64,000 nt of DNA from an uncultured Pseudomonadota bacterium (GCA_902787305.1 CADAFS010000002.1:31449-95448); one strand, 5' to 3'; shown: positions 5,928 to 21,807, numbered from the stretch's first letter. Numbers and translations: made by a program. Notes: a model not told the origin generated them from the letters alone.

Positions 5928-5946
5928 TGGTGCGGGCGAAGGGAAT
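5928..5946. repeat. 19-bp direct repeat of tRNA-Gly(CCC) 3' end (tggtgcgggcgaagggaat), att-like site A
   Basis: Identical to 21197-21215 region of the tRNA-Gly gene at the far end of the island. Confidence 0.7.
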
Positions 5947-6088
5947 GTAATTCCCATTCACTTTGTTCATGGGCCCCTTTCACTGCGCTTCGCTTGTTCC
6001 GAACCCTCTCGTTGCCGTTGGCAACTCTTTCGGGTTCTCTTCCGTCGCCACATGCAAAAATTAAACCGGCAAAATGCCGGTTGAATTT

Positions 6089-6105
6089 TTGGTGCGGGCG
6101 AAGGG
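6089..6105. repeat. 17-bp direct repeat of tRNA-Gly(CCC) 3' end (ttggtgcgggcgaaggg), att-like site B
   Basis: Second copy 160 bp from copy A. Preceded by hairpin ccggcaaaatgccgg and 21-bp repeat catgcaaaaattaaaccggca, which also occurs at 5787-5808. Confidence 0.7.
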
Positions 6106-6300
6106 GACCATATTTTCGCTTTTTTAACCCTTTTTGGACCCTTTTTAGCCGCTTTTTACCTGTTTTTTATCATTTTGCCTGACACTTTGCTTGGCACTTT
6201 TATAAAATACTGTGTTTCCGGTAAAAAGTACACAAAAAAAAATGATATTTACAATTAGTTACAAATTGGTTATAGTTGCATTGAAAGTGAAGAGGAATAT

Positions 6301-7377
6301 ATGAAAAAAACATCCACGTATAATGCAGAAACTTTAAATGGTGTTTTAAGGTTGGCTGAATTGTTTTGTGGCCCTGGTGGTATTGGATTGGGGGCAAAAC
6401 TTGCTAACGTGGACGGTTTAAAGATTAAACATGTCTGGGCTACGGATTACGATAAAGATACATGTGAAACATATAAAAGGAATTTGAACCCAGAAGCAAT
6501 AATTTGTGAAGATATTCGCAAAATGGATTTTGCAAAAATTCATTCAAAATATGGCGAGATAGATTGTTTGACTTTTGGTTTCCCTTGCAATGATTTTAGC
6601 ACGGTTGGCGAACAGAAAGGATTGCACGGGGTTTTTGGTGCTTTGTATCAATATTGTGTAAAAGCATTGGAAGAATTTAAACCGAAATTTTTTATAGCAG
6701 AAAACGTGAGTGGTTTGCGTAATGCTAATGATGGAGAAGCTTTTAATAAGATTTTGGAAGCTTTTAAAAATTGTGGATACAACATATACCCCAATTTATA
6801 TCATTTTGAAGAATATGGTGTTCCACAAAAAAGACATAGAGTCATTATTGTTGGTATACGCAATGATATAAATTTAAAGTTTAAAATACCGTCTACGAAA
6901 CCATATAAAAAAGTGGATAATTCTGTAAGAACTGCTTTGAAAGACATTCCAGAAAAAGCACCAAACAATGAATTAACTGCTCAATCTGCAATGGTTGTAG
7001 AAAGATTGAAATATATAAAGGAAGGTGAAAATGCTTTCACCGCAAAGTTGCCACCACACCTTCAATTAAATGTAAAAGGTGCAAAAATAAGTCAAATTTA
7101 TAAACGGTTAAAAGCAGATGAACCTTCTTATACGATTACTGGTAGTGGTGGCGGTGGCACACATGTATATCATTATAAAGAAAATCGTGCTTTAACAAAC
7201 CGTGAACGTGCAAGGATTCAAACCTTTACGGATGATTTTGTGTTTATAGGGTCGAAAGAAAGTGTTCGTAAACAGATAGGTATGGCGGTTCCACCAAGGG
7301 GTATGAAAATAATATTTGAAGCACTGTTAAATACAATTCTTGGTAATGATTATGAAACAATGGAAGCAAAAGTGTAA
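6301..7377 (+). CDS. DNA (cytosine-5)-methyltransferase (Type II R-M methylase)
   Basis: Motif I FCGPGG, motif IV GFPCNDFS, motif VI ENV, motif VIII QKRHRVIIVG, motif IX RERARIQTFTDDF, motif X GMAVPP. Confidence 0.85.
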   Translation: MKKTSTYNAETLNGVLRLAELFCGPGGIGLGAKLANVDGLKIKHVWATDYDKDTCETYKRNLNPEAIICEDIRKMDFAKIHSKYGEIDCLTFGFPCNDFSTVGEQKGLHGVFGALYQYCVKALEEFKPKFFIAENVSGLRNANDGEAFNKILEAFKNCGYNIYPNLYHFEEYGVPQKRHRVIIVGIRNDINLKFKIPSTKPYKKVDNSVRTALKDIPEKAPNNELTAQSAMVVERLKYIKEGENAFTAKLPPHLQLNVKGAKISQIYKRLKADEPSYTITGSGGGGTHVYHYKENRALTNRERARIQTFTDDFVFIGSKESVRKQIGMAVPPRGMKIIFEALLNTILGNDYETMEAKV

Positions 7378-7380
7378 AAG

Positions 7381-8370
7381 ATGTCCGATATCATATTAAA
7401 AAACGATTTGTTTGAAAAAATATTGTTAGAACCAGCCAGGGAGTGTGATGAGTTGCGGATTGTGTCCGGTTTTTCAACACCTGCTATGGTAGTGCATAAT
7501 TTAACTGAAGTAGAAGAGCAATTTGCAAAACCAGATTTAAAAATACAGTTAATTATAGGTATGACCCCCACAATTTCCGGTATTTCTAAAACGCATCATA
7601 AAAACTTTACTAAACTTGTTGCCAATCGTCCAAACTTTGTGTGTTCGTATATAAAATCAGATGCCAGTCCGATACATACAAAGCTTTATACGTGGCTAAG
7701 AAATGGTGTTCCACAAAAAGCATTTCTTGCTTCTGCAAATTATACGATAAACGCATTTAAAAAAGAACAGGATGAAATAGCAACGGAGTGCGACCCTGTT
7801 CAAGCTTTGGAATATTTTAATTCCAAAGTTCCGCTGTCTTTATATTGCACTTGTGATGAAGCAGAGGAAATGGTTAGAGAAGATGTTTTACGGCAACGTG
7901 TTGCAAGAACGAGAGAAAATTCCGATGAAGAACAACAGGTGCTTGTTGAAAATTCAGGCGTGGAAGGGCAAGACACTGTGTCTTTACCATTATTTGTAGT
8001 TAGAGAAAATAGAATTCATACTCATTCTGGTTTGAATTGGGGGCAAAGAGACCGTAGAAATCCGAATCAGGCCTATATACCAATACCGGCAAAAATAGGT
8101 AGAAGTGGTTTTTTCCCGCCACGTGGACAGCCTTTTGCTGTATTGACTTCAGACGGATTCCCGTTTGTATGTGTTGTAGCACAGGGCGGGGATAAAGCGA
8201 TACATACAACAAATAACAATAGTGAATTTGGTGAATATTTTAGACGCCGGTTGGGTGTCCCATTAGGCGCTCCTATAACATTAGATGATTTGGACCGTTT
8301 TGGGAATAGATATGTTAAATTCACAAAAATAAATGAAGAAGAATATTATATGGAATTCAACCCAAGCTAG
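7381..8370 (+). CDS. Putative Type II restriction endonuclease, PLD-superfamily (BfiI/NgoAVII-like) with C-terminal DNA-binding domain
   Basis: Starts 3 nt after the MTase stop (translationally coupled). N-terminal IHTKLYTWL...(20 aa)...LASANYT resembles the metal-independent PLD nuclease active site (His/Lys ... Asn, spacing H+20 as in BfiI). Call is family-level from motifs only. Confidence 0.45.
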   Translation: MSDIILKNDLFEKILLEPARECDELRIVSGFSTPAMVVHNLTEVEEQFAKPDLKIQLIIGMTPTISGISKTHHKNFTKLVANRPNFVCSYIKSDASPIHTKLYTWLRNGVPQKAFLASANYTINAFKKEQDEIATECDPVQALEYFNSKVPLSLYCTCDEAEEMVREDVLRQRVARTRENSDEEQQVLVENSGVEGQDTVSLPLFVVRENRIHTHSGLNWGQRDRRNPNQAYIPIPAKIGRSGFFPPRGQPFAVLTSDGFPFVCVVAQGGDKAIHTTNNNSEFGEYFRRRLGVPLGAPITLDDLDRFGNRYVKFTKINEEEYYMEFNPS

Positions 8371-8792
8371 AAAAGATTGGTGCTGTGTTCGGCCTGCATG
8401 ACGAACTCAGATATAATAAATAAAATTACCATCCCATACGATTAATAAATCTTGATACGGTTGTTTGTTTGACGGACAGTATTTTTGCATTTCGGTATTA
8501 GATTAATGCATAATATGGTTAGAATTTTTTTCATAAATACTATTTACTTTTTTTTATAAATGTTTTATATTCGGATTGAATCCAAGAGATTGGGTTCGGG
8601 GTCTTTACAAACCCGCTTTATCCGATGCGAAAGCATCGTTATCTGATGGTTTCGGTGCTTTGCATCGTAATCATCCCTGGCTTGATGGTCGGGGTGCCGT
8701 AAGCTATACAACAGGGGTAACCTGAAGGCACGGGGTCAATGATAAAGCGACTGTAAACACTCCCGACCGCCTTTTGTCTGTATGGCGGCCAT

Positions 8793-11700
8793 TTGTTTTT
8801 AGGAAAGGAGATTTATATGCAAAACAAATTGGATTTATCTGTAAAGACAATAACCAAAAACAACATAAAATATAGTTGGGCATTTGTTTTGCTACTAATT
8901 CCTGTTACATCCTATGCTGATTTTAGTTTTAATAATTACCAATACACATTAAATTATTTACGGTCACAACATTTAACAAATGAATTCAGTCATTATACTA
9001 TCAATTTTTCCCCAACACAAAATGATGGGACAATAAATAGTTATGTATATCAAAATGGAACATTAACTCCAGTTAGTTATAATTATACCCTTACACCAAA
9101 TGCTGGGGACCATGGTGGTGGTGTCGTTCTTCATAATGGAGACGATTTAAACGTGTATTGGCACAATGAAACAAATTATAATCTTGTTGCTACTCCTGCA
9201 ACAATAAATACCATCGGAACAATATCTGGGGATTTTATAACTAATTCAGGGTCCGGACAAGCTGGGGGATTAACAAACAATGCTTTTACAATAAATAATT
9301 TATACGGTGATTTTATAGAAAACACTTCAACAACCAATGCTGGAGGCTTGCTTAATCTTGAGAACGGGCTTATTGGTAATATAGTGGGTAATTTTTTAAA
9401 CAATAATGGTATTGGATATGGGGGCGGTATCGACAATGAAGCCACTATTACAAATATAACATCAAATTTTGTTGGGAATATTGTCAATTATCCTGCTAGT
9501 GGTTCTGCCCTGGTTTTTGGGACAGCTATTGGCGGTGGAATTTATAATGCAGGGGCTATAACAGGTATATCGGGAGATTTTATTGATAATAGAGCGTATA
9601 ATTATTTTTCCGATTCCATAACCTCTTACTATTTTTACTCTTTTTCTGGTGGTGGAGCCTTATATAACGGAAAAAATTATTTACAGCCACAAAACAATGT
9701 TGAAACTAATATTATTGAGAACATACAGGGAAATTTTATCGGGAACTCTGCAGTTATTGAAAACATCTATAATCCTACAATAACCGATACTTTATTCTTC
9801 AGTGTTAATGGTGGTGCAATTTTCAATAACTATAATGGTCAAATACAAAACATAAATTCTGATTTTTATAACAATTTTGTGAATATAGATAATACAGGTT
9901 CTCTGTCTGGGATGGATACTATACAATTATGGTCAAGAGGCGGGGCTATTTATAATGAAGGTATAATCAACAATATTACTGGGAGTTTCATTAATAATAG
10001 CGCAACTATAAACAACAATAGTACTTTTAATACAGAAAACGTTCAATTATGGGCTTTTGGAGGCGCTATTTACAATGCTGGACAGCTTGGGTTGCAAGCC
10101 ACATCCAACGACATATTGTTTTCCGGCAACTCCGCAACTTTAGGCGGAGCTATTTATAACACATCCACTTTAACTATGAATATCGCAGAAAACCAACATA
10201 TAATTTTTGACACTGTCAGTGACGATATTTATAATAGCGGAACAATAACAGTATCAGGTGACGGAACTTTGTATTTACAATCTGTATCGGGCAATGGTGT
10301 TTTAAATCTTAATAATCATATTACTCATTTGGCAGACAATGCCGCATTTCAACAATATCTTCTTCAATTAGCGGAAGGGAGCATTTTATATGCTACCCCT
10401 AGTTCTCTTCTCTCTGACACAGGGGTATTAAATGATGGTACTTTATTTTTTTCAGACGGGGTATTATCCACGCACATAACCGGCTCTGGCAATATAATAA
10501 TAAACGGTGACGTGGTTAACGATTCCTACATAGGGAATCAAGTGATTATTAATTATGGTCACTCTTTAACAACTGCCGCTGGGTCGAATAGTTTGCATAA
10601 TGGCATTTTGAATAACGGGACATTATACTTAACAACTGGCTCATTAAGTACATGGACTGATATTACAGGCGATGGAACTATAATAACACTTGGTAATATT
10701 TCTGGTAACGCGGGTCAATTTGGGAACAATATTGTAAATGATTATACATTAACTTTAAACGGTGGAACATTAAATACAAGAATTAGCGGTGATGGAACGC
10801 TTGTTACCACAGGCAATGTAACAATTGATGTAACCGGTGCTTACTATGATACAGGGTATGTTAGTGTAGTAGAAAACAACATACAAAACAATGGGACATT
10901 AACACTTGTCGGTGGAGGTAGATTATGTACAAATATTTCCGGTGATGGTAATGTGGTGATTAATAATTCTTCGGGCTTTGTTGTTTCAGTAGCAGATGAC
11001 AATATTATAAGCGAATCCATAACAATTAATAATGAGGCAAATTTAAATGCATCCGCAAATAGTATTGGCGGAAATGTTATTAATAATGGTCAATTACATC
11101 TTTGGGGTGGGACTTTAACACATAATATTGCAGGAACAGGTTATACAGGCATACATGGTAACACCGAAACATCTGCAAATAATTTGTTAACAAACATTAG
11201 TTTAAGCGGTCTTACTGAATCCGAAGAAATATCACTAACTTTAACAGATGGCACATTACAACGAGTTATAAGCAATGGTAACAATGCAAATAATAATATC
11301 ATTATAGACGGTGATGTTTTATCATCTCCATCAAATCTATTAGTAAATGTTTCTGTAAATGATGGGGCTGTATTAACGTTAACCAATGGTACTTTATCTA
11401 AAAATATAACTGGTAATGGAACGTTATCGACAAGCGATTTAACAACAAGTGCGAATAATCTTGGAATTAACGTTAATAACATAGGCAATTTAACTCTTTC
11501 TGGTGGAACAATAACTCATAATATTACCGGTACAGGGCAAACCACAATCAATGGTGCTGTTACCAATAATGCGCTTATATCTCAAACAATGGTTGTTAAT
11601 TCTGGTAAATCTCTGACAACCGTCGCTGAGGGTATTGGCGGAAATATTTTAAATTCGGGGAATGTTACTTTAACTGGCGGGACCTTAAATAATAATATAT

Positions 11701-13598
11701 CTGGTGGCACAATAACAATAGATGGTAATGTTATTAACGATGGTAATTTGTACGGTTCTCTGGTTATAAATTCAAACAAAAGCCTAACAACTGATGCAGA
11801 TAATATATATTATTCCGGGTTACAAAATAACGGGGAATTGATTTTAACAGGTGGCACAATTTCCGGTGGTATAAATGGTTTATTCTACATATCGGGTAAT
11901 GTAACCAACAATGCTACACAAACTGGACAAATAAACATCTCTAACGGTGGTATGTTTACAACCGGTGGAAATTTATTATCAACAAATAATGCTATTATAA
12001 ATAATGGTACACTTAACATTACCAGTGGCAACCTGCAACAAAATGTTACTGGCGGAAACACCATAATTGCTCAAAACGCAACAACCAGCGCAACCAGTTT
12101 TGGCAATCTGGAATTAAACGGCATTATGAATGTCGGAACCAATACTGTTAATACGGCAAATGCAGATATTAATGGCACTATAAACCTTGGTATATCATCA
12201 TTAAACAAAAATTCCAGTACATATACCGGTGGGCACATTATAGCAGATGACATTGTGTTTGGCGATAATGCCATGCTTAATTTGACCATTACGGACACAA
12301 ACCTGCAAAAGGGTGGTTCCAGTGGTGATATAGAAATAATTACCGCAAATGGTGAATGGACGGGTGATATCGCTACATTTACCAGTAATAATTTGTATGA
12401 TATAGCATATAATACCGAAAATCACACATTTACGTTTACACGTAAAAAATTCGGTGCAGATTTAATAACAGAATTGAACGGGACTGAATTAGATATCAAT
12501 ATCGCCGGGGTTTGGGATGAACTGCAATCATCAGATAATCCAAATATACAAACCATAATAAATGCTATTGACTATAATTCCCAACATAACGCGACCAAAT
12601 ATGCTAAATTAATCCATAATTTGGCGCCACAAAACCATCAGGTTACGGTTGGGGCGGTACGTAACGCCAACACAGTTATAGATAATCATATATTCACTAG
12701 GTTGGCAACACTTAGACGCCCACAAATTAATAGAACCAACGCTAATCTAAGAAAAAGACGCGCAAATCCTTTCTATTATTATGGAAATTATCGTGGCAGA
12801 AACGGTGGTGATACAGAACCGACAACTAACAATGGTATGTGGATAGAAGGACTTTATAATTACGCACAACAAAAAGATGACACAAAGTTTTCTGGCAAAA
12901 CGTTTGGTGTTATGGGCGGTTTTGATTCTAAATTAACGGAACATTTGACCGCTGGTTTAGGGTATGCATTTAACAAAACAAACATTGACGCCGATAATCA
13001 CGATATTGACGCCATGGGGCATACGGGTTTTGTATATGCCGAATATAAACCAACACAATGGTATCTGGACGCTTTGTTGTCATATAACCTGACAAATTAT
13101 CAAAATTCAGCCGCACTTATCGACAATTTGACCGTAAAATCTGATTATAAAACCAACAGTTTGAGTGGCGCCTTGACGTCGGGTTACGATTTTCAAAAAG
13201 GTTTGGATTTATACGGTGGTCTGAATTATATCGGAATTAAACAGGACGCTTACACAGATACCGCCGGTCAATATATCAAAGCCGATGACACACAAATGTT
13301 GACCCTAAAAGCCGGTGGAAGATATAAATTAACAAGTCAAAAAATGAAAAGAGCTAGCACCGTTTTGAAAGCTGCGGTTTTGTACGATGTTATGTCTGAT
13401 GATGGGGTTGCAACGGTAACAGTAGGCAATAATAATTACATTGTTCATGGTAATGGTATTGACCCGTTCGGTGTTCAGGCAGGTATTATGTTTGATTCAT
13501 TTGGTGGCAATACTTATTTATCGCTAGGTTATGACCTTGAATGGCGTAATAATTTCATTAGTCATACAGGTTATATAAAATTGAAATACAATTTCTAA
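8793..13598 (+). CDS. Giant autotransporter / polymorphic-membrane-protein (Pmp)-like adhesin, 1601 aa
   Basis: N-terminal signal peptide (alternative start ATG 8817 MQNKLDL...). Passenger packed with GGA[I/L] tetrapeptides (GGAIYN x>=6) and FxxN repeats (GDFITN, GNFLNN, GDFIDN...), the Pmp hallmark. Many (N)ITG(G)/GTL beta-helix-like repeats. C-terminal ~300 aa beta-barrel translocator ending ...LKYNF (terminal Phe). Strongly AT-rich Asn/Thr/Gly codon usage. Confidence 0.75.
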   Translation: MFLGKEIYMQNKLDLSVKTITKNNIKYSWAFVLLLIPVTSYADFSFNNYQYTLNYLRSQHLTNEFSHYTINFSPTQNDGTINSYVYQNGTLTPVSYNYTLTPNAGDHGGGVVLHNGDDLNVYWHNETNYNLVATPATINTIGTISGDFITNSGSGQAGGLTNNAFTINNLYGDFIENTSTTNAGGLLNLENGLIGNIVGNFLNNNGIGYGGGIDNEATITNITSNFVGNIVNYPASGSALVFGTAIGGGIYNAGAITGISGDFIDNRAYNYFSDSITSYYFYSFSGGGALYNGKNYLQPQNNVETNIIENIQGNFIGNSAVIENIYNPTITDTLFFSVNGGAIFNNYNGQIQNINSDFYNNFVNIDNTGSLSGMDTIQLWSRGGAIYNEGIINNITGSFINNSATINNNSTFNTENVQLWAFGGAIYNAGQLGLQATSNDILFSGNSATLGGAIYNTSTLTMNIAENQHIIFDTVSDDIYNSGTITVSGDGTLYLQSVSGNGVLNLNNHITHLADNAAFQQYLLQLAEGSILYATPSSLLSDTGVLNDGTLFFSDGVLSTHITGSGNIIINGDVVNDSYIGNQVIINYGHSLTTAAGSNSLHNGILNNGTLYLTTGSLSTWTDITGDGTIITLGNISGNAGQFGNNIVNDYTLTLNGGTLNTRISGDGTLVTTGNVTIDVTGAYYDTGYVSVVENNIQNNGTLTLVGGGRLCTNISGDGNVVINNSSGFVVSVADDNIISESITINNEANLNASANSIGGNVINNGQLHLWGGTLTHNIAGTGYTGIHGNTETSANNLLTNISLSGLTESEEISLTLTDGTLQRVISNGNNANNNIIIDGDVLSSPSNLLVNVSVNDGAVLTLTNGTLSKNITGNGTLSTSDLTTSANNLGINVNNIGNLTLSGGTITHNITGTGQTTINGAVTNNALISQTMVVNSGKSLTTVAEGIGGNILNSGNVTLTGGTLNNNISGGTITIDGNVINDGNLYGSLVINSNKSLTTDADNIYYSGLQNNGELILTGGTISGGINGLFYISGNVTNNATQTGQINISNGGMFTTGGNLLSTNNAIINNGTLNITSGNLQQNVTGGNTIIAQNATTSATSFGNLELNGIMNVGTNTVNTANADINGTINLGISSLNKNSSTYTGGHIIADDIVFGDNAMLNLTITDTNLQKGGSSGDIEIITANGEWTGDIATFTSNNLYDIAYNTENHTFTFTRKKFGADLITELNGTELDINIAGVWDELQSSDNPNIQTIINAIDYNSQHNATKYAKLIHNLAPQNHQVTVGAVRNANTVIDNHIFTRLATLRRPQINRTNANLRKRRANPFYYYGNYRGRNGGDTEPTTNNGMWIEGLYNYAQQKDDTKFSGKTFGVMGGFDSKLTEHLTAGLGYAFNKTNIDADNHDIDAMGHTGFVYAEYKPTQWYLDALLSYNLTNYQNSAALIDNLTVKSDYKTNSLSGALTSGYDFQKGLDLYGGLNYIGIKQDAYTDTAGQYIKADDTQMLTLKAGGRYKLTSQKMKRASTVLKAAVLYDVMSDDGVATVTVGNNNYIVHGNGIDPFGVQAGIMFDSFGGNTYLSLGYDLEWRNNFISHTGYIKLKYNF

Positions 13599-14007: not shown

Positions 14008-14301
14008 ATGAAACAACAGTCTAATCTTTTGAAACAATTCCAGGTATGGATGGAACAAAAGGGTTATAAAAAAACAACACAATCGAATTTGCCAAGCACT
14101 ATTGCAACATATACGGCGTCTTTCCTTCAAATTTGCGAGTGGGAATCTAAAACACCGGAACAAGTTGCAGAATCTATTTCTGACATAGTGCTTGATTACA
14201 CGATAAAAACTCATTCTGCTAGAGGAAGAATGCGCAGTAGGTCCATCCGGGCAAGTGCGGTCGCCTTCAAAAACTTTTTAATCGAATCACAGGTTGCGTG
14301 A
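14008..14301 (+). CDS. Hypothetical small protein (weak resemblance to phage-integrase N-terminal SAM-like/core-binding domain)
   Basis: 97 aa. RBS aaggat 7 nt upstream. Overlaps next ORF by 4 nt (ATGA). Confidence 0.35.
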   Translation: MKQQSNLLKQFQVWMEQKGYKKTTQSNLPSTIATYTASFLQICEWESKTPEQVAESISDIVLDYTIKTHSARGRMRSRSIRASAVAFKNFLIESQVA

Positions 14302-14627
14302 TGAATAAGATTGCCGAATTAAATGATAACCTTAGAAAACATATGTGGTCCCCTGGTCGTAATAAAATCGTTTTGACCAGGGGTGTATGTTCTTTGCCGT
14401 TGATTGAACAAATGTTGTTATTGAAAAAGGTCAGAAATTTTAATGACTTTAATAAAGCAAACGATGTTTATAAACACCATGACTTTGGAAAAATTGAACA
14501 CAATGGGACAAACTATTTTTTCAAGATAGATTATTATGACCCATCGATGGAATATGGTTCAGAAAACCCAGCAAACGAAAATATAACAATCCGGGTTTTA
14601 ACGATAATGCGTGCAGACGAATATTAA
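14298..14627 (+). CDS. DUF3768-like protein (family typical of plasmids/ICEs)
   Basis: 109 aa. Motifs HHDFGKIEH, FFKIDYYD, TIRVLTIMRADEY recalled as the DUF3768 signature. Family call from memory, unverified. Confidence 0.4.
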   Translation: MMNKIAELNDNLRKHMWSPGRNKIVLTRGVCSLPLIEQMLLLKKVRNFNDFNKANDVYKHHDFGKIEHNGTNYFFKIDYYDPSMEYGSENPANENITIRVLTIMRADEY

Positions 14628-14640
14628 AAAAGGACTTGAT

Positions 14641-14784
14641 ATGGCGAATTGCACTTATTTTAAACTTGAAGTTAACGGTATGATATTGCCGGAAATATAT
14701 TTCAACTATGACCAAGCAAAAACCGCATTACAGAATATAGAAAAAACTAATGTTGCTGTAATCGGTAGAGTTATTATGTTTTAA
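14641..14784 (+). CDS. Small ORF (47 aa) MANCTYFKLEVNGMILPEIYF..., hypothetical
   Basis: Immediately downstream of the DUF3768-like ORF. Followed by a clear terminator hairpin. Confidence 0.25.
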   Translation: MANCTYFKLEVNGMILPEIYFNYDQAKTALQNIEKTNVAVIGRVIMF

Positions 14785-14805
14785 CCGTTGATATCAAAAC
14801 AATAA

Positions 14806-14842
14806 AACCTGTATACGCTGGAAAGTATACAGGTTGTTTTTT
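14806..14842 (+). terminator. Rho-independent terminator (aacctgtatac-gctggaaa-gtatacaggtt + T6)
   Basis: 11-bp perfect stem, T-run. Ends the 14008-14784 small-gene operon. Confidence 0.7.
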
Positions 14843-14878
14843 ACATTTGTTCCATATTTGAGTCGTGGCTGCCCCAAT

Positions 14879-15517
14879 CTAGAAATGCTTAATACTTAGT
14901 ATCCGATGACTCAAAGGAGCAACCACAAAGGGTTTGTGTGATGATTTGGAATGTTTTGTATCGTCTGGAAACATCTCGGTTGATAAAAATACTCGATTAT
15001 CGTCAAAATAGGCGTCTTTATTGGCTTTGATTTCCTTTGTTGCATAAAAATACGCTTTGCATTCGGTTCTGTTCATTGTTTGAATATCAACCACATCCGG
15101 AGAATAACAAAAATGTTTTATAGTTTTATCTATCGCCGCGGTTATTTTATAATTGTGGTATCGGTTATTCTGTAAAAACATATGAAAATGCCACTTGTTG
15201 GATGAATTCTGTTCACCGAAACCGATAAATAATAACTGTTTACGAAACCAGTGTCTTGGACTTAATTGCTTTTGAAAATACTTCATAACCCGTCGTAAAT
15301 AACTTCGGGATATTTCCATACTTTTACTACGCTGATTTGTTGGAAATTGGATTGAAATAAAGTGCGTCGGAGCAAATTCACACAACCATTTGCAAATTTC
15401 CCGTCTTAAAATCAATGTTTGTTTTGCATTTTTACGAATTATACAATCAATTCTGTATACATCCACCATATCATTATTTGTAGTTAACATTTTTACCACC
15501 ATTGTTGTTGCAACCAC
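14879..15517 (-). CDS. Hypothetical protein with HUH-endonuclease-like motifs (possible rolling-circle Rep/relaxase-like initiator)
   Basis: Contains HFISIQF (motif-1-like), WHFHMFL (HUH-like H-F-H), and AYFYATKEIK (YxxK motif-3-like) in the canonical order. Start uncertain (several in-frame Met). Not verifiable without search. Confidence 0.3.
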   Translation of the reverse strand: MVATTMVVKMLTTNNDMVDVYRIDCIIRKNAKQTLILRREICKWLCEFAPTHFISIQFPTNQRSKSMEISRSYLRRVMKYFQKQLSPRHWFRKQLLFIGFGEQNSSNKWHFHMFLQNNRYHNYKITAAIDKTIKHFCYSPDVVDIQTMNRTECKAYFYATKEIKANKDAYFDDNRVFLSTEMFPDDTKHSKSSHKPFVVAPLSHRILSIKHF

Positions 15518-15889
15518 AGATGCAAATCAAATCACGATAGGTTGTGGTGGTGTGGTGGTAATGATTCTTTCTGCATCTATGGTTATTAACATAAATTAGA
15601 ACATCTGTTTTATTGTTTTTGCGTTGTGGTTGTATTTTCTTGAAAAAGAGTAAAAAAATTAAACAACACGATTGTTTTTTCGGCTGTTAATTTTTTTAAC
15701 CAACATATATCAACCGCATTGCGTCTATGTTTATCGTCGAATACCACATCGAAAGTCCACAAGCGATACAATATACACATTTTTATAGAACAGTTTTTTG
15801 TGGTGGTTGCATGGACGGAATTATTTTTTTGATAAAAATCCCGGTGTTTTAAACCGGGATTGATGGTTGCACCATATGGCGCTTTATTA

Positions 15890-16078
15890 TTATTTTGGTT
15901 TAGCGATACGCATAAAATCGCAAGTTGATATCAACATACACCTGTTTAATCGTGCAAAATCCGGACCTTCCGTTTTCAAATTTTTATAAATTTGTTTAAC
16001 GGAAAATCTTTTGTCTGGGAATAATTCTTGTAATCTTTCCTTGGCAAATTTTGCTTCAATTTTTAACCTGTTATTCAT
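15890..16078 (-). CDS. Small protein (62 aa), last gene of 3-gene MTase operon; possible DNA-binding/regulatory protein
   Basis: Start overlaps stop of upstream MTase by 8 nt. Basic, helix-rich sequence. Confidence 0.3.
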   Translation of the reverse strand: MNNRLKIEAKFAKERLQELFPDKRFSVKQIYKNLKTEGPDFARLNRCMLISTCDFMRIAKPK

Positions 16079-17294
16079 GATTTTCTCCTTCGGTTTTTGT
16101 ATTAGGGTTAAATTCTGCTTTTACAAATTCGGCAACAACGGCACAGCAGTGTGCACTAACCCAGCATTCCCCCAAAACAGTGCGGAGCAACTTGGTTTTC
16201 TGTCGTGCCCAATATGGAATTTCGATATCATCGGGTAATCCGATTGCACGAAAAATTTCATGTATTGTGAATGTACGGCAATCTGTAAATTGTTCGTTTC
16301 CGTCCTTATCCAAAATTGGTTTACCGTTATCATCAACAATTAATCGACCTGGATGAATCATATGATATGCGGATAGTTCACCACTATTCGTCAAAATCGA
16401 ATGCATTGGTTCATTCCACCTCGCGCGGCTGAAAGCACCAGCGTGTTTAGCACCACTTACTTTTTTAGATAATGTTAGTGGGGAAACAACCCGTTCACCA
16501 GTTGGTGTTATTCGTATTTGGTCTGCTTGCCAAGGTGCGACATACCCAGGTTCATCGTACCAATCTGGTCCACGTTGCCCGAATTCCAGTGTTGGTAAAT
16601 CGTCAATTGCATCTTCCAATGTTAATGGGATTTCTGTGATTGGTTCTGGTAATTTTATTGGTTTAACCTTTGACGCCATAATAATTGTTCGTGGCCGATT
16701 AATTGCTACCCCGAAATGTTTTGCATTTTGAACGGCTTTACAAACATATTGAAAACCAAGATTTCTTAATTCTTTTTCTATTTGGTCGCCAAGCAGAAGT
16801 TCATATTTCTTCGTTTTAAAAGTTAACATATCTTCCGCATTTTCTATGGCGCAGAATTCATATGATGGACAGCGTTTTAAATGTTCCATAACCGCTTCGA
16901 ATAGATATTGTTCATCACTATCTTCATCCTTCCTTGTGTTTGCCCGAGTTATTTGCTGACAGCATGGACTTGCCAGAAGTATTTGCGGTTGTTCTTTATT
17001 TGCAATTTCAGCCAATTTATCTTGCACTTTCGGGTTGGTTATATCACCAATTACCATCGTTGAATTTTTAAAAAGTGCATGATTTAGTTTAGCGCGGTCT
17101 GGTACCAACTCGTTCGTCAAAACAACATCTACCCCTATGTTTTGAAGGTAATACTGGTTTATTCCAGCACACGCAAATAGATTGGTCGCCTTCAAACGAT
17201 GGGGCGTGTCTATTTTGATTTGTTGGGGTTGAACGTGCGACTTGATTTTGTCGCATGTTGTTTTTATTAATAAATCACTGTTATTTCGTGCCAT
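16071..17294 (-). CDS. Second DNA (cytosine-5)-methyltransferase
   Basis: Motif I LFACAGI, motif IV ASPCCQQ (PC), motif VIII QNAKHFGVAINRPRTIIMA, motif IX RTFTIHEIFRAIGLPDD, C-terminal GECWV. Variable TRD between VIII and IX. 14-nt overlap with upstream ORF. Confidence 0.75.
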   Translation of the reverse strand: MARNNSDLLIKTTCDKIKSHVQPQQIKIDTPHRLKATNLFACAGINQYYLQNIGVDVVLTNELVPDRAKLNHALFKNSTMVIGDITNPKVQDKLAEIANKEQPQILLASPCCQQITRANTRKDEDSDEQYLFEAVMEHLKRCPSYEFCAIENAEDMLTFKTKKYELLLGDQIEKELRNLGFQYVCKAVQNAKHFGVAINRPRTIIMASKVKPIKLPEPITEIPLTLEDAIDDLPTLEFGQRGPDWYDEPGYVAPWQADQIRITPTGERVVSPLTLSKKVSGAKHAGAFSRARWNEPMHSILTNSGELSAYHMIHPGRLIVDDNGKPILDKDGNEQFTDCRTFTIHEIFRAIGLPDDIEIPYWARQKTKLLRTVLGECWVSAHCCAVVAEFVKAEFNPNTKTEGENHE

Positions 17295-18414
17295 TGTAAT
17301 CTCCTTTGGCTTCGCTGATTAAATAATTTTGTTTTAGGTATTTGAAACTTTCGTCGTGAATTTCCAAGACCGGAAAAGTCGGATACATTTGTTGGATGAT
17401 TTCCGCATAATATAATGGGTGTTTATCCGTTTTTGTGATTTCTCGGTCAAATACAACGGAATCCATTTTTAGGTTCTGCGGCTTCGGGGCGTCTCCCTTA
17501 CACACTATCACCATTGTTCGATGTTGACGGGTTGTAAAAGCCCCGTTGTGTGATTTACCGGTATCCACAACCGCAAATTCTTTTACCGTAAATCGTAAAT
17601 TTTTCAGAATATCCAATGATTTTTGAATTTGTGATTCATCCAGCCAGAAAAATCCAACGGCATCTTCCGCAATATGATTTCGCATAATTTCAACATTGAT
17701 TTTATACACCAAATCACCATAAATTACCGGAAATTTTGCATTTTCTGGTAAATCAAACATAGGGGCATCACCGGCTTCAAGAACCGTGAATGTTTTGTTT
17801 TCCGATTTTTCATCCGTATGAATTTTTTGATTAAGTTGGTACAAAGTCGGCAAATCTTCAACATCCCAATCGCCACTTTTTAACTTTTTTAACGACTCTT
17901 GGGTGGCGCGTTCGACCATGTCAAAGGTTATATCTTTTCTTATTGTCCATTTTTTTCGCGACAATTTATATTCGTCCCATGCCATTTTATAACTTGGAAA
18001 TCGCCCAGATTTGATATCCCGTTTAATATGCTCTACCTTTTGGACTTCTCGATAAAGCAACCACGAATTCAAATAAATCGCTGTTTCGCATACACCAGTA
18101 TGATTTTCTAATTCATCCGGCGAATTTGCATGTTTGAGTGCACCCTTGGCATCGGATAATAACTTTTCGGCATCTTTTTCATATTCCGCCAATTCTGCTT
18201 CCGTTAAAACTCGAACATCTGGTAATAATGTACAACCAGACACCATTACCGCCGTATTAATCGGATTTGATTCGGTCGTTTCAACGGGTTGAGTTAATTC
18301 TTGCTGTTCTGTTTGTTCGGATAAATCTGCCACCATATCGATTTCTAGACCAATCCTAGACGCATTTAATTCGGCCGCGTTTAAACCATTATTTAAAGAA
18401 TTCATAACTAGCAT
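17281..18414 (-). CDS. Hypothetical 377-aa protein, first gene of MTase operon (candidate cognate restriction endonuclease or other defence partner)
   Basis: No recognisable motifs by eye. Translationally coupled to the C5-MTase. Acidic N-terminus. Probable true start at second ATG (18405) with AAGGA RBS. Confidence 0.4.
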   Translation of the reverse strand: MLVMNSLNNGLNAAELNASRIGLEIDMVADLSEQTEQQELTQPVETTESNPINTAVMVSGCTLLPDVRVLTEAELAEYEKDAEKLLSDAKGALKHANSPDELENHTGVCETAIYLNSWLLYREVQKVEHIKRDIKSGRFPSYKMAWDEYKLSRKKWTIRKDITFDMVERATQESLKKLKSGDWDVEDLPTLYQLNQKIHTDEKSENKTFTVLEAGDAPMFDLPENAKFPVIYGDLVYKINVEIMRNHIAEDAVGFFWLDESQIQKSLDILKNLRFTVKEFAVVDTGKSHNGAFTTRQHRTMVIVCKGDAPKPQNLKMDSVVFDREITKTDKHPLYYAEIIQQMYPTFPVLEIHDESFKYLKQNYLISEAKGDYNGTK

Positions 18415-18799
18415 TCCTTAATTTTTGACAATAAAAGCACCCTTTGCGAAATCGCATTATCGGTTCTGCTCCGGGAAACTTTAGGTTAAAATTTGGATGA
18501 AAAACTTTTCGGTTTACATCCGCTTAAACTTGGTCTAGAATGTTCATTGCATATGAGTCGTTCTAGACCATTAGTTCGATTCTTTAATTTGGGGTTAACG
18601 GTTTCATATCGTTGCTCCATTTTTTTATTTGTTAATTTTTTTTACACAACAATGATTAAATAAACCGCAGAAATTCGCCAGAAATTTATTTTCATTTTTT
18701 GCAAATAAATTTTGGAAAAAATTTTGAAAAAAACAGTTTGTATCAAATTAAAAATTAAAATCCTTGATTTTGGGGCTTTTTTAATTACGATATGTAGCA

Positions 18800-19303
18800 A
18801 TGCTACACATTTGGAAAAACATGGACGGAAAACTGAATATTTTTTTGGCTAATTTATACAAATACCTGAACGAATCGGTGGATTTTTTGGATGTATGGTT
18901 AAAACAAAATCCGATAAAAAAACGAATCATAACGCCAATTGAAATGAAAATATTATATGGATTAAAATACGAAAATTTGAAAACACAGCGGGATATTGAA
19001 AACCATTATAATATGTATCGTTCAACAATTATGAAAACATTAAACAAATTAAAATCAGACGGATTATTAACAATCGAAACAAAATCATTTAAAAATCGCA
19101 CCATAACGCTTACCCAAACAGGTAATGAAACCATTGAATCTATTTTTACACAGATTGCCACTTTTTATCAAAATATGGTGAAAAACGAAATGAAGAATTT
19201 AGATGATGATGGCGTTATGGATGAATGTATAACAACTACACAGAAGGCTTATTTAAATCTCGGCCGAATAATAAAATATTTACCACACAGAAACAAAAAA
19301 TGA
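18800..19303 (+). CDS. Putative winged-helix (MarR-like) transcriptional regulator
   Basis: 167 aa. Central segment QRDIENHYNMYRSTIMKTLNKLKSDGLLTIE resembles the MarR/SlyA HTH-wing. Divergent from the MTase operon. Confidence 0.35.
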   Translation: MLHIWKNMDGKLNIFLANLYKYLNESVDFLDVWLKQNPIKKRIITPIEMKILYGLKYENLKTQRDIENHYNMYRSTIMKTLNKLKSDGLLTIETKSFKNRTITLTQTGNETIESIFTQIATFYQNMVKNEMKNLDDDGVMDECITTTQKAYLNLGRIIKYLPHRNKK

Positions 19304-19379
19304 AATACACTATATGGCGTTTAACCACTGAATAAGCCATCAAACAAATTTCAAGCACACGCGTAAAAAGGCCTTCGTG

Positions 19380-19500
19380 TATTTTTGATTATTTCAATGT
19401 TGGTTTTGGTGTGGGTGGTGGCTAGTCGGGGCTGGCGGCTGGCAGGTGGGTATCCTGGGATGCCGGGTGGGATATGGTAGCCCCCGGGTAGGTGGGTATA
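19380..19500. repeat. G-rich tract with GGTGGG/GGTGGGTAT iterations immediately 3' of integrase stop
   Basis: tggttttggtgtgggtggtggctagtcggggctggcggctggcaggtgggtatcctgggatgccgggtgggatatggtag...ggtaggtgggtataacc. Confidence 0.5.
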
Positions 19501-19514
19501 ACCAGCGCAATCAA

Positions 19515-21095
19515 CTATTTTTTTGACATAACTTTTTTCCAGTAATCAAATTCCGGTTGCAGAAAATCGTATCGCAGTTTATCCGCTTGTTCTTTGATTT
19601 TTGCCAGCGTATGCTTGGAATAGTGTTGTTCCATAATTGTTTGGCCTTTCCAGCCCATAATATTGTTGATATATGATTGTGGAACTAAAAAATCCTGCAA
19701 TTGTAAACTTGCATTATTGCGGAAAGAATGGAAATCCAATTTACCCTTGTATGGTTTAGATAAATTCAAACTACGAATAAACGGTAAAATGCCTTCGGAT
19801 ACATATTTATTATTATAATTACCTTTGCTGTTAACCGCTTGGGTAAATACAGGGTCACTATCTTCGGCTTTTAATCTGCTTTTTTTCCTTTGAGCCCAAT
19901 CAATAAATCCCAAATCCAATAATTGTGTTGGAAGTGGCAACACTCGTATTGTTGCACCAGTTTTTAATTGTTTGGTTTTATTGTCCTTATCTTTATGGAA
20001 ATAGATACAATAACAACCATCTACATCAATAATATCTTTATATTGAATTGTTACTGCTGCATTTGTTCTGGCACCAGCAAACATTCCCATCAAAATAGCC
20101 CAAAAATCGTCAGGGTTATCTTTGAAATGTTTGTGTTTTGGGTTGAATATTTCTTTCAAATCTTTTTCTGTGTATGGCATATGCGGATTTTGGGATTCGC
20201 CTTTTTTATAAACAGGATAGCGGTTGTTAAAATTTTTGTACAATCCGGGATATTCTCTGTCTGCATAATTGTATAATGCCTTTAAATAACCGACTTTCTT
20301 GCCTTTTGTTGCATCTGTCGCCCACTTAGGGTTTGTTTTTATTTCGTTTATTATCGCATCAATTTTTGCTTCATTATTAAATTCAGCGTAATCGGAATCA
20401 ATGGTCAATCCAATTTTTTTGGCCATATGTTTAAAAAACGATTCTTTCTTGCGTTTTTCTGCATCCCCATTATTTTCATGCTGAATCCAAGCGTCTCTCA
20501 ATTCCCTTATCGTGTGTTTTTCCGGTGGTGTTCCAGAACCGGAACCTGAATTTATGTAATCCATTTGTAATATTTTTTGTTGATTTTGCATGATTACTTC
20601 TTGATTGGTTAAAATTTGCCCCATCATTTCTTCTAAGTGTTGTATTTGGTCAATCGTATCTGGGTCAGTAATGCTCAATTTTAATTTTTGTAATCTTGAA
20701 TATATTCCAAGTAAAGCCTTTATTTTTATAGGGTCGTTTTGAATCGATATGCGTTTAACTTTGCACATCATCATTTGACCGCCGCAATCAATTTCCTTAT
20801 CGTATTCATCAAAAACCATATTTTTTGATATCGATTCAGCGGCAAGAATTAATGTTTTTGCTTCAAAGTTTTTTGAATATGAATTGTCTTTCATTTGTTT
20901 CGCCTTTTCCAACGCCTCATAATAATTTTTCGTATGTAATGATTTTATAAAATATCGGCGTTTACCATTTTGACGCGGTAATTCAACCATATAATAAAAC
21001 ACATCACCCCTAAGATAAAGATTGTCATTTGCTTGACAGTTTGCTTTACACTTCTTGAACATAGTTATTTTCTCCTTGTTTTTCAAGTGCGCCAA
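19515..21095 (-). CDS. int: Tyrosine-type site-specific integrase (phage integrase family), tRNA-adjacent
   Basis: 526 aa. C-terminal catalytic region with ARTNAAV (Arg), KTGATIRVLPL, HSFRNNASLQL (H-x-x-R), MGWKGQTIMEQHYSKHT (catalytic Tyr). Lies 100 bp from the tRNA-Gly 3' end, co-oriented. Confidence 0.8.
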   Translation of the reverse strand: MAHLKNKEKITMFKKCKANCQANDNLYLRGDVFYYMVELPRQNGKRRYFIKSLHTKNYYEALEKAKQMKDNSYSKNFEAKTLILAAESISKNMVFDEYDKEIDCGGQMMMCKVKRISIQNDPIKIKALLGIYSRLQKLKLSITDPDTIDQIQHLEEMMGQILTNQEVIMQNQQKILQMDYINSGSGSGTPPEKHTIRELRDAWIQHENNGDAEKRKKESFFKHMAKKIGLTIDSDYAEFNNEAKIDAIINEIKTNPKWATDATKGKKVGYLKALYNYADREYPGLYKNFNNRYPVYKKGESQNPHMPYTEKDLKEIFNPKHKHFKDNPDDFWAILMGMFAGARTNAAVTIQYKDIIDVDGCYCIYFHKDKDNKTKQLKTGATIRVLPLPTQLLDLGFIDWAQRKKSRLKAEDSDPVFTQAVNSKGNYNNKYVSEGILPFIRSLNLSKPYKGKLDFHSFRNNASLQLQDFLVPQSYINNIMGWKGQTIMEQHYSKHTLAKIKEQADKLRYDFLQPEFDYWKKVMSKK

Positions 21096-21196
21096 AGCAA
21101 AAAATGTTGGGAATCCAAAGATTTATTTGCATTGATATGTTTTTTATATCAAACAAAAAATCCGGTCAAAGTGCCGGATTTGTGATAAAACTATCT

Positions 21197-21270
21197 TGGT
21201 GCGGGCGAAGGGAATCGAACCCTCGTCTAAAGCTTGGGAAGCTTTCGTGCTGCCATTATACCACGCCCGC
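21197..21270 (-). tRNA. tRNA-Gly (anticodon CCC)
   Basis: Reverse complement GCGGGCGTGGTATAATGGCAGCACGAAAGCTTCCCAAGCTTTAGACGAGGGTTCGATTCCCTTCGCCCGCACCA. 7-bp acceptor, anticodon loop TTCCCAA, T-arm GGGTTCGATTCCC, encoded CCA. Near-identical in architecture to enterobacterial glyU. Confidence 0.85.
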
Positions 21271-21321
21271 GGTGTGTGATGGATTCTATATCAATCCAAC
21301 CGAATTGTCCAGTAGAAAAAT

Positions 21322-21786: not shown

Positions 21787-21807
21787 TCATTTCAGTACCC
21801 CATATAG

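Follow-up and report, generated by a model that had tools for sequence, protein, structure and literature searches.

Island Boundaries and Insertion Site

The question raised by this locus is whether the AT-rich block beside a tRNA-Gly(CCC) gene, read in the initial annotation as an integrative island flanked by repeats of the tRNA 3′ end, is a mobile element with definable ends and, if so, what kind of element it is and what it carries. The window analyzed is a 64,000-nt stretch of DNA from an uncultured gut alphaproteobacterium (Candidatus Enterousia-like). The observation was confirmed and its interpretation proved largely right: positions 6106–21195 (15,090 bp) very probably constitute an integrative element, inserted in the 3′ end of tRNA-Gly(CCC) through site-specific recombination by its own tyrosine integrase. 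The features that define its limits are as follows:

21197–21270, minus strand: tRNA-Gly(CCC), the integration target (ARAGORN; Rfam tRNA, 63 bits)
21196–21212, unstranded: attL core, 17 bp, TTGGTGCGGGCGAAGGG on the plus strand (direct repeat of 6089–6105)
6089–6105, unstranded: attR core, the true island boundary and displaced original tRNA 3′ end (repeat and empty-site alignment)
5928–6088, unstranded: older scar, a 19-nt copy of the tRNA 3′ end (5928–5946) plus a 142-bp segment (repeats and comparison with the sister genome L004)

The direct repeats of the tRNA 3′ end are real. Positions 6089–6105 and 21196–21212 form a perfect 17-bp direct repeat (17/17 nt), while 5928–5946 matches the tRNA at 21197–21215 over 19/19 nt; with up to two mismatches allowed, the window holds three copies of the 16-mer TGGTGCGGGCGAAGGG, against 0.06 expected, and at least three copies arose in 0 of 100 shuffles. 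Their designation as attL/attR repeats, on the other hand, holds for 6089–6105, which bounds the island, but not for 5928–5946, which belongs to the older scar outside the element. The 142-bp segment of this scar, which contains the ancestral tRNA terminator hairpin (6064–6082), is also found at the L004 empty site together with the repeat, there in decayed form. Because both occur at the empty site, the 5928–5946 repeat and the 142-bp segment are older than the island, which fits the earlier suggestion of serial integrations.

The empty site itself, which the initial annotation predicted would join the left flank directly to the tRNA, was found in L004, a Ca. Enterousia metagenome-assembled genome whose flanking genes share 95–99% amino acid identity with those of the window (PFK 98.7%, LysM 96.5%, and GDH 94.7%). 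In this genome, the HD/GDH flank is joined directly to tRNA-Gly, which lies ~210 bp from the HD gene; the 3′ flank of the tRNA corresponds to window positions 6088–6044, and the junction aligns base for base as an exact attB. The tRNA also neighbors the HD gene in six further relatives, and its sequence is identical in L004–L008 and L013. Integration was precise, with the island bringing a new 3′ end for the tRNA together with a terminator hairpin of its own, and with the original tRNA 3′ end and the chromosomal terminator moved 15 kb away, to 6089–6105. The partners in this recombination were, with high probability, the attP of the element and the last 17 bp of tRNA-Gly(CCC), CCCTTCGCCCGCACCAA.

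Could the block instead be ancestral and lost from relatives, with no insertion, and the repeats chance matches or tRNA-derived pseudogene fragments? Fragments of the tRNA 3′ end are indeed common at the locus even where the island is absent (L004, L005, and L006), but the L004 junction is an exact attB in which the tRNA runs straight into the sequence that lies left of 6089–6105, the same tRNA site holds unrelated content in L006, L007, L008, and L013, and other genomes carry homologous elements at a different tRNA-Gly gene. Base composition likewise speaks against an ancestral origin, which we regard as very improbable. The AT-richness noted at the outset was borne out: the GC content of the island is 35.3% (0.353) versus 44.7% (0.447) for the rest of the window, the richest 3-kb window of the island (0.368) falls below the poorest of the flanks (0.392), and GC3 ranges from 0.23 to 0.37 versus 0.39–0.49. 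The k-mer composition is equally distinct, with tetranucleotide L1 distances of 0.33–0.48 in the island versus 0.143 ± 0.018 in the flanks.

Integrase and Attachment Arms

Three features account for the recombination functions of the element:

19515–21062, minus strand: tyrosine integrase, 515 aa (PF00589, phrog_1, and residue alignment)
21063–21195, minus strand: attL arm and int upstream region (hairpin, motif, and family alignment)
6106–6209, minus strand: attR arm (two tandem 12-mers, phased A-tracts, and conservation in relatives)

The integrase had been placed at 19515–21095, ~100 bp from tRNA-Gly and co-oriented with it. It does lie on the same strand, 101–134 bp from the tRNA 3′ end according to the start chosen; the full open reading frame begins with TTG, and the ATG at 21062, which gives the conserved N-terminus MFKKCKAN, is the more likely start. 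The protein matches PF00589 (27.3 bits; cut-off 27.1) and phrog_1 (5.6e-24), and the catalytic residues R332, K364/367, H445, R448, W471, and Y481 are invariant in five homologues. With these residues, tRNA 3′-end repeats at both borders, and an empty site in a relative, the island is a textbook tRNA-targeting integrative element and, as such, an ordinary kind of genomic island.

The attL arm contains the terminator hairpin that the island supplies to the tRNA (21158–21181) and the motif AAGTGCGCCAAAGCAA (21085–21100), an inverted copy of 12-mers in the attR arm; together with the int 5′ end, it shows ~80% DNA conservation across the island family. The attR arm, which is 74–96% conserved in L037, L039, L040, L008, and L013, holds two tandem 12-mers, AGTGYCARGCAA, at 6175–6199 and five or six T/A5 tracts with 11-nt phasing at 6112–6170. 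The N-terminal 52 aa of the integrase are DUF6538-like and nearly invariant across the family, and this domain would bind the conserved 12-mer arm sites, while the phased A-tracts may bend the attR arm. The divergent catalytic and core-binding part of the protein may in turn set the choice between the CCC and GCC tRNA-Gly cores.

Backbone Genes

Between the integrase and the cargo lie the following features:

18800–19303, plus strand: winged-helix (MarR/TrmB-like) regulator, divergent from int (profile match and L037 comparison)
17281–18414, minus strand: 377-aa protein with an MT-A70-like C-terminal domain (Foldseek and motif)
16071–17294, minus strand: orphan C5 cytosine methyltransferase, a backbone gene (PF00145 and family comparison)
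14879–15517, minus strand: putative HUH Rep-like endonuclease (motifs)
14806–14835, unstranded: bidirectional terminator hairpin where the DUF3768 operon and rep converge (terminator search)
14298–14627, plus strand: DUF3768 protein, 109 aa (DUF3768, E = 1e-30)
14008–14301, plus strand: orf97, a conserved backbone ORF (family comparison)

All gene calls of the initial annotation were reproduced, namely the two PF00145 C5 methyltransferases, the NgoFVII enzyme, the autotransporter, and the DUF3768, Rep-like, and winged-helix/MarR-like genes. A MarR protein occupies the position of the winged-helix regulator in L037. The 377-aa protein, whose gene overlaps the start of the orphan C5 methyltransferase gene by 14 nt, displayed no match in Pfam and a weak PHROG match (phrog_21315); its model (pLDDT only 58) returned MTA1, METTL3, and M1.HpyAVI as top Foldseek matches (E ~2e-5, TMt 0.4–0.49), with a non-canonical DL[VS]Y where DPPW is expected. 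The orphan C5 methyltransferase is 89–93% identical to its counterparts in L034 and L041 and 62% identical to that in L045.

The putative Rep carries motif I (FxSIQFP), the HUH motif as W-H110-F-H112, and Y158xxK161, all invariant in five sequences that are 24–72% identical, as in members of the HUH superfamily, and these motifs suggest a Rep function. Profile matches are weak (REP_ORF2-G2P; PF23343 at 23.2 bits, below the cut-off of 27.8), PDB profiles gave no usable match (best, RepB, E = 0.47), and tblastn against plasmids returned no homologue; the protein is homologous to no known relaxase or plasmid Rep. It is small and lineage-specific, forming 27 protein clusters, all from uncultured Alphaproteobacteria, and the ~320 nt upstream of its gene (15518–15838) are 75% conserved with L037. 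In the convergent operon, DUF3768 begins within orf97, the two overlapping by 4 nt. A type II toxin–antitoxin system of the RelE/ParE type, with a RelE/ParE-fold toxin encoded behind a small antitoxin, was weighed as a conceivable reading of this pair. The product of orf97, which gave no signal against Pfam or PDB even at E ≤ 10, shares 80% identity with its counterpart in L037 and 75% with that in L045. DUF3768 relatives occur on plasmids (255 of 493 conjugative), lying near ssb, parB, and relaxase genes on those of Alphaproteobacteria.

A Modular Island Family

Comparison with related loci shows that the island belongs to a modular family in which the attL and attR arms are conserved and the backbone is common, and in which the cargo slot, running from orf97 to a small resolvase beside attR, is variable. 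The family occurs in gut and rumen Alphaproteobacteria and targets tRNA-Gly(CCC) or tRNA-Gly(GCC). Six loci (L033–L037 and L041) have the same gene order beside one or the other tRNA and share int (41–84%), Rep, DUF3768, orf97, the methyltransferase, and the winged-helix protein; the L037 island is bounded by a 12-nt tRNA repeat. The backbone comprises the tyrosine integrase, the winged-helix/MarR protein, the MT-A70-like protein and the orphan C5 methyltransferase, the HUH Rep, DUF3768, and orf97, and both element ends are conserved at the DNA level across the family.

Cargo and Leader RNA

The present cargo is a Pmp-like autotransporter with a leader RNA, plus an NgoFVII-type restriction–modification (R-M) pair:

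6301–7377, plus strand: cognate C5 methyltransferase of the R-M pair (PF00145, 3.3e-77)
7381–8370, plus strand: NgoFVII-type restriction endonuclease with PLD and B3-like domains (PF09565, 2e-28; PF20731, 3.7e-30)
8429–8497, minus strand: 3′ remnant of a small serine recombinase (resolvase; last 23 codons, 87% identity)
8572–8802, plus strand: structured leader RNA, ~215 nt, plus intrinsic terminator (covariation, structure, and terminator)
8817–13598, plus strand: type Va autotransporter, 1593 aa (PF03797 beta-domain and repeats)

The R-M genes lie 3 nt apart and combine the nuclease, the B3-like domain, and the adjacent C5 methyltransferase (best PADLOC match MTase_II, 7e-118) of a type II NgoFVII-type system. 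Both NgoFVII Pfam domains and the neighboring methyltransferase are shared with the system of Neisseria gonorrhoeae; the difference is that the pair here is a cassette inside a mobile island. Of the defense cargo initially proposed, this pair stands (PADLOC) as the sole recognizable defense, whereas the second C5 methyltransferase is the orphan backbone gene. The resolvase is intact beside attR in L037, L006, L008, and L013, and the region that holds the R-M cassette (6210–8428) separates the resolvase remnant from the attR arm, two features that lie 32 nt apart in L037. By this comparison, the cassette has been inserted beside the truncated resolvase.

The autotransporter is of type Va, with a PF03797 beta-domain (3.2e-25) over its last 332 aa, a passenger bearing GGAIYN and FxxN (Pmp-type) repeats, and a long signal-like N-terminus. 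These features it shares with the chlamydial Pmp proteins, although its Pmp repeat matches (16.8 bits) are below the Pfam threshold of 20.6 and its host is alphaproteobacterial. In L006, L007, L008, and L013, the giant ORFs that occupy this site were considered as diverged forms of the same adhesin; they showed no homology to the autotransporter, in a comparison also run without low-complexity masking, and this candidate was therefore rejected. The interval had been singled out as the likeliest place for an undescribed system, and the cargo yielded no protein system of that kind. The conserved Rep–DUF3768–orf97 backbone and the structured leader RNA are the features of the island that were less to be expected.

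This leader RNA is the most novel item of the island, with real discovery potential. It lies directly upstream of the autotransporter ribosome-binding site, behind a promoter-like site (8543–8571), shows strong covariation, and has six copies in related DNA, five of them in an attenuator-type arrangement immediately in front of a gene; where these genes can be identified, they encode cell-surface functions. A Rfam search of 5000–22500 at permissive thresholds found no family above its gathering score except tRNA, and matches to RF02221 (sRNA-Xcc1) of 27.2 bits (8687–8776) and 21.1 bits (57561–57646) fall below the gathering score of 53, outside the family. The sRNA-Xcc1 family is tied to mobile elements, including integrons, transposons, plasmids, and prophages (PMC12189769). 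Over its 3′ half, the leader RNA aligns end to end with the family model (outer stem, two hairpins, and U tail), and it, too, is on mobile DNA; it differs in being ~130 nt longer at the 5′ side, in its position directly upstream of a gene, and in the separate terminator that follows. An alternative antiterminator helix of GGTCGGGG with CCCTGACC is 80% paired, with covariation no greater than that of controls, and we retain it only as a possible fold.

Mobility and Relationship to Known Elements

No island ORF matched a type IV secretion system (T4SS), relaxase, capsid, or terminase in Pfam, PHROGs, NCBIfam, or PADLOC, and the search of Pfam, NCBIfam, and PHROG for the genes that mark an integrative and conjugative element (ICE; T4SS, coupling protein, and relaxase) was likewise negative, setting the island apart from ICEs. 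Since transfer and packaging genes are missing from the island itself, we propose that the excised circle would be nicked and replicated by a rolling circle, or mobilized, by the HUH Rep. The orphan methyltransferases and DUF3768 may act at establishment in a new host, through self-protection or anti-restriction, and the R-M pair would stabilize the island and give defense.

Look-ups with the exact integrase and HD proteins returned the integrated arrangement only, with no circular or attP forms and no other contexts; the exact integrase was found in two samples, and some of the look-up contigs break near the att repeats. It is conceivable, if rather unlikely, that the element integrated as described and is now domesticated or decaying, no longer excising or moving, its genes having become chromosomal cargo. 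The recovery of the exact integrase in the same chromosomal context from independent samples is consistent with this, and partial decay of the element may be reflected in its truncated resolvase, reduced to 23 codons; neither an excisionase nor a directionality factor (Xis/RDF) was recognized. Decay is also evident at the same site elsewhere, as integrase N-terminal fragments (L008, L038, L039, and L040) and as a giant ORF and resolvase without int or rep (L006 and L013). Yet the island retains int, rep, and both att arms in intact form, its 17-bp cores are identical, all the integrase catalytic residues are conserved, and a composition so unlike that of the flanks speaks for a recent arrival.

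An origin as a phage satellite or defective prophage (PICI-like), or as gene-transfer-agent cargo, in place of a plasmid-like mobilizable island, is improbable. An integrase, a regulator, a replication gene, and accessory genes at a tRNA site within ~15 kb do recall phage-inducible islands, as does the weak phrog_21315 match of the MT-A70-like protein, but the island has no gene for a capsid, terminase, portal, primase-helicase, or packaging redirection. PHROGs matches were confined to the methyltransferases, integrase, regulator, and one family of unknown function, unlike a prophage or PICI; scans of IMG/VR found neither integrase relatives nor the RNA core pattern, and the relatives of DUF3768 are on plasmids.

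Read as an integrative element, the island resembles genomic islands and integrative and mobilizable elements (IMEs) in its integrase beside a tRNA, duplicated tRNA 3′ end, empty site in relatives, foreign composition, and modular cargo (R-M and adhesin), and in having no conjugation machinery of its own. It differs from them in having no recognizable relaxase, oriT, or Xis, the HUH Rep being the sole candidate DNA-processing enzyme. AICEs of the pSAM2 type, 10–20 kb elements of Actinobacteria, likewise carry a rolling-circle Rep, which in the island is putative, alongside a tyrosine integrase that targets a tRNA; they also encode an FtsK-like Tra protein for dsDNA transfer and spread genes, both absent here, and the present host is not an actinobacterium. 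The tycheposons of Prochlorococcus, like the island, are tyrosine-recombinase elements that occupy tRNA genes in a bacterium with a small genome, and the likeness in organization extends to tRNA hot spots with arrays of partial tRNA repeats, decayed copies, and swapped cargo, as in L005, L006, L008, and L013, whereas the backbone (Rep/DUF3768/orf97), host, and habitat differ.

Implications

In the literature, we found no description of mobile elements from Ca. Enterousia-type Alphaproteobacteria, which are uncultured inhabitants of animal guts; the island provides a cleanly delimited one, with its attB/attL/attR series. The tRNA-Gly/HD locus is a hot spot for the exchange of giant surface proteins, and the small conserved backbone (Int, Rep, DUF3768, orf97, and paired methyltransferases) is a possible vector or source of anti-restriction functions. 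More tentatively, integrative elements that encode a Rep, with the island as an example, may form an undescribed family that spreads surface-protein cassettes among reduced-genome gut Alphaproteobacteria, accompanied by a new class of cis-regulator of cell-surface genes. The leader RNA would then be a riboswitch or attenuator with a 3′ domain distantly related to sRNA-Xcc1, and, if this is true, it could hint at the role of that widespread mobile-element RNA.

Target site, borders and empty site of the island

The tRNA-Gly(CCC) gene and its co-oriented tyrosine integrase neighbor were correctly read in the initial annotation, the former being called by ARAGORN and Rfam (63 bits) and the latter by PF00589 and phrog_1. 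The direct repeats of the tRNA 3′ end claimed there were borne out as well, with two copies on the forward strand at 5928-5946 (19/19 nt) and 6089-6105 (17/17 nt). For the 16-mer present in all three copies, 0.06 matches were expected (≤2 mismatches), and three copies were reached in 0/100 shuffles.

Using the flanking HD-domain gene (5139-5699, reverse strand), we fetched relatives from GTDB genomes; the 29 HD-gene matches listed all come from uncultured Alphaproteobacteria of the gut or rumen, and many of these bear the label Candidatus Enterousia. An empty site, anticipated in the initial annotation, was found in the sister Ca. Enterousia MAG L004, whose PFK, LysM protein and GDH share 98.7%, 96.5% and 94.7% amino acid identity with those flanking the island. 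Its gene order is PFK, LysM, orf502-like, orf154, tRNA-Gly(CCC), HD and GDH, with a tRNA-to-HD gap of merely ~210 bp, and the tRNA lies directly upstream of HD in six further relatives (L009-L012, L014, L015). In a three-way alignment, the L004 tRNA continues into AAAATTCAACCGGCATTTTGCCGGTTTAATTTTTGCATGTGGC, the exact sequence left of the 6089-6105 repeat; the L004 arrangement is therefore attB, and its read-through junction sets the borders as follows:

21197-21270, reverse strand: tRNA-Gly(CCC)
21196-21212: attL, inside the intact tRNA
6089-6105: attR, the repeat at the far border
6106-21195: the island, 15,090 bp

The 17-bp att core, read in tRNA orientation, is CCCTTCGCCCGCACCAA. The rebuilt tRNA is followed by a terminator hairpin that belongs to the island (21158-21181), and the ancestral hairpin (6064-6082) stays at attR. 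The insertion at the tRNA 3′ end is precise and of the integrase type.

The AT-richness noted initially is pronounced: GC is 0.353 in the island versus 0.447 in the rest of the window, and the values for 3-kb windows separate fully (island maximum 0.368, flank minimum 0.392). Measured against the flanks, the tetranucleotide distance of the island is 0.33-0.48 versus 0.143 ± 0.018 for flank windows. Island genes have a GC3 of 0.23-0.37 and flank genes one of 0.39-0.49. The island is real and cleanly delimited, and its arrival was probably recent.

Two independent metagenome contigs break at or beside the att repeats, L002 at window position 5957 and L048 ~440 bp upstream of the integrase gene (int), near the tRNA. 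Such breaks could stem from a mixture of occupied and empty alleles, or from nothing more than assembly failing at repeats.

Gene content

The genes predicted initially (two C5 methyltransferases, an autotransporter, DUF3768, a HUH Rep and a MarR-like regulator) were found again, within the following set:

19515-21095, reverse strand: integrase ORF (PF00589, DUF6538-like N-terminus; phrog_1 'integrase', 5.6e-24)
18800-19303: winged-helix regulator, divergent from int
17281-18414: 377-aa protein, overlapping the C5 methyltransferase gene
16071-17294: C5 methyltransferase, overlapped by the 377-aa protein gene
14879-15517: HUH Rep, 212 aa
14298-14627: DUF3768, convergent to rep, overlapping orf97
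14008-14301: orf97, convergent to rep, overlapping DUF3768
8817-13598: autotransporter, 1593 aa (PF03797, 3e-25), with GGAIYN/FxxN repeats
8429-8497: resolvase remnant, 23 codons
7381-8370: predicted NgoFVII-type endonuclease
6301-7377: predicted C5 methyltransferase partner of the NgoFVII-type endonuclease

Given that all integrase homologues start with MFKKCKAN, the true start of int is probably the ATG at 21062. Thirteen clusters of homologues and no Pfam domain were found for the 377-aa protein; its low-confidence structural model (pLDDT 58) matches only the MT-A70 enzymes MTA1, METTL3 and M1.HpyAVI (E ~2e-5), and DL[VS]Y is invariant where the MT-A70 motif is DPPW. In Rep, the elements FxSIQFP, H110-x-H112 and Y158xxK161, kept in five homologues of 24-72% identity, make up what is, judged by its motifs, a rolling-circle HUH signature. 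The Rep family is small (27 clusters, every one from uncultured Alphaproteobacteria), and no relatives were found among plasmids or in the PDB. Two stretches of island DNA, 15518-15838 and 13766-14007, are conserved and would be candidates for an origin or oriT.

PADLOC detected R-M components only among the island genes, and no island ORF matched T4SS, relaxase, capsid, terminase or primase families. We rejected both an ICE, for want of a T4SS or relaxase family, and a prophage or satellite, for want of a capsid or terminase family.

A family of elements with exchangeable modules

The integrase search gave eight metagenomic loci among the matches listed, and homologues of the 377-aa protein gave further ones. 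The same genes in unchanged order occur at L033, at tRNA-Gly(CCC), at L036, L037 and L041, at tRNA-Gly(GCC), and in the fragments L034 and L035. The complete L037 (11.1 kb, with a 12-nt tRNA repeat at its bounds) comprises int, MarR, C5 methyltransferase, Rep (71% identity), DUF3768 (64%), orf97 (80%), cargo and an intact 199-aa resolvase adjoining attR, the cargo being a Slam surface-lipoprotein assembly modifier and two proteins without known function. The island is one member of this family, with int and rep intact and mosaic cargo.

Modules are shuffled between elements. The L041 integrase is 42% identical to that of the island versus 93% for the methyltransferase and 91% for DUF3768. L045 (1-21146; ENA ERZ28653857 scaffold_1507) represents another kind of mobile element, whose recombinase, located near tRNA-Asn, is a large serine recombinase of 520 aa, yet it shares the MT-A70-like and C5 methyltransferase pair (50% and 62%), Rep (29%), orf97 (75%) and the leader RNA described below; modules thus pass between element types. 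L045 also has an Eco47II R-M pair.

The integrases form two groups, CCC-targeting (70-84% identity) and GCC-targeting (41-43%), across which residues 1-52 are nearly invariant. The attL arm with the int 5′ end (21196-20889) shows ~80% DNA conservation over eight loci, and the attR arm (6209-6106) 74-96% over five. Within the attR arm, the 12-mer AGTGYCARGCAA occurs twice in tandem, and there are four to six A5 tracts with a phasing of 11 nt; the 12-mer recurs in inverted form at 21085-21100, just upstream of the int RBS. The invariant N-terminal domain may bind the 12-mers as arm-type sites, with core specificity set by the variable catalytic part.

Candidate leader RNA

The most novel item of the interval is a structured candidate leader RNA of ~215 nt on the forward strand (8572-8802), with GC above its surroundings and a predicted fold of -87.7 kcal/mol (z = -3.8). 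Searching ~680 kb of related DNA with nhmmer and a covariance model gave six copies:

Window 8572-8802, forward strand
Window 57539-57770, reverse strand
L045 15673-15900, reverse strand
L021 (related locus) 4950-5180, reverse strand
L020 (related locus) 12422-12646, reverse strand
L020 3552-3884, forward strand, divergent

When the six sequences are aligned, 83% of cells pair, and double-sided changes occur in 32/67 pairs versus 15.1 ± 2.9 in shuffled alignments (none of 500 reached 32); the slid controls gave 7-14. A promoter-like site precedes every copy and an intrinsic terminator closes it; this terminator lies 15-35 nt from the RBS and start codon of the gene that follows in 5/6 copies and ~170 nt in the other. 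Downstream are the genes for the autotransporter, for a secreted protein of 1479 aa and for two GT2 glycosyltransferases, as well as ORFs (235, 422 and 742 aa) without assigned family. A segment overlapping the terminator's 5′ arm, CCCTGACC, can pair instead with GGTCGGGG, suggesting an attenuator logic; this alternative helix lacks covariation because the sequence is too conserved.

No Rfam family scored above threshold; sRNA-Xcc1, a family that PMC12189769 links to integrons, transposons and genomic islands, gave 27.2 and 21.1 bits over the RNA 3′ half versus a gathering score of 53. The RNA is a candidate new cis-regulatory leader or riboswitch.

History of this copy and of the integration site

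In L037, the resolvase stop codon lies 32 nt from the attR arm; here a 2.2-kb R-M cassette separates the resolvase remnant (8429-8497) from the arm (6209), so the NgoFVII pair is a secondary insertion. The 5′ part of the resolvase is lost in this copy. Later decay stages are seen at the same site in relatives: in L008, L038, L039 and L040, int is cut down to its first 60-70 codons; L006 and L013 have a giant ORF and the resolvase but neither int nor rep; and L007 has a single 2309-aa ORF.

The giant ORFs at the tRNA-Gly/HD site of relatives (1575-2309 aa) are unrelated; in many cases the 199-aa resolvase is intact and the attR arm conserved, but no more than 60-70 codons of int are left:

L006 3141-9809
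L007 2947-9876
L008 2608-9632
L013 883-8768
L039/L040 10001-11735

These loci are a decay series of related islands, and the tRNA-Gly/HD locus is a hot spot for exchanging large surface-protein genes. A resolvase beside such genes could serve phase variation.

The genes bordering the hot spot (21808-23316 and 5139-5699, both reverse strand) evolve much faster than their neighbors: orf502 shares ~21% identity with its positional counterpart in L004 and in the relative L005, and the HD protein has 72-88% identity to its L004 and L007 counterparts, versus 95-99% for PFK, LysM and GDH.

The L004 empty site also holds the 5928-5946 copy, decayed there to 12 nt, and the 142-bp inter-copy segment; since both occur there, they predate the island. 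The serial integration proposed initially fits this shared copy, but as old scars outside the present element. Arrays of tRNA-end copies at ~150-190 bp spacing, with segments homologous to those of the window, occur in four relatives; the positions in the window and in these relatives are:

Window 5782-5812 and 6044-6074, 5928-6088
L005 5471-5727
L006 2558-3004
L008 2287-2471
L013 8924-9872

The array segments (~150-190 bp) contain a terminator hairpin, and arrays are present even at island-free sites. Either repeated rounds of integration and excision left them as scars, or they are a miniature element that is non-autonomous. In L005, the PFK-to-tRNA-Gly block (5537-9846) has the opposite orientation with respect to HD/GDH, and a tRNA-end repeat (5543-5561) marks the junction, which suggests inversion between att-like copies.

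Possible mode of action and significance

The island would behave as integrative mobilisable elements or genomic islands do. The excised circle may be replicated or mobilised through Rep, the methyltransferases and DUF3768 may act during establishment in a new host, and the R-M pair may serve stabilisation and defence. Its likeness to AICEs is limited to a tRNA integrase paired with a rolling-circle Rep; tycheposons offer an analogy in their similar hot-spot behaviour. The island is of an established type, and its modest interest would grow only if functional novelty were shown for the leader RNA or for the Rep/DUF3768 backbone.
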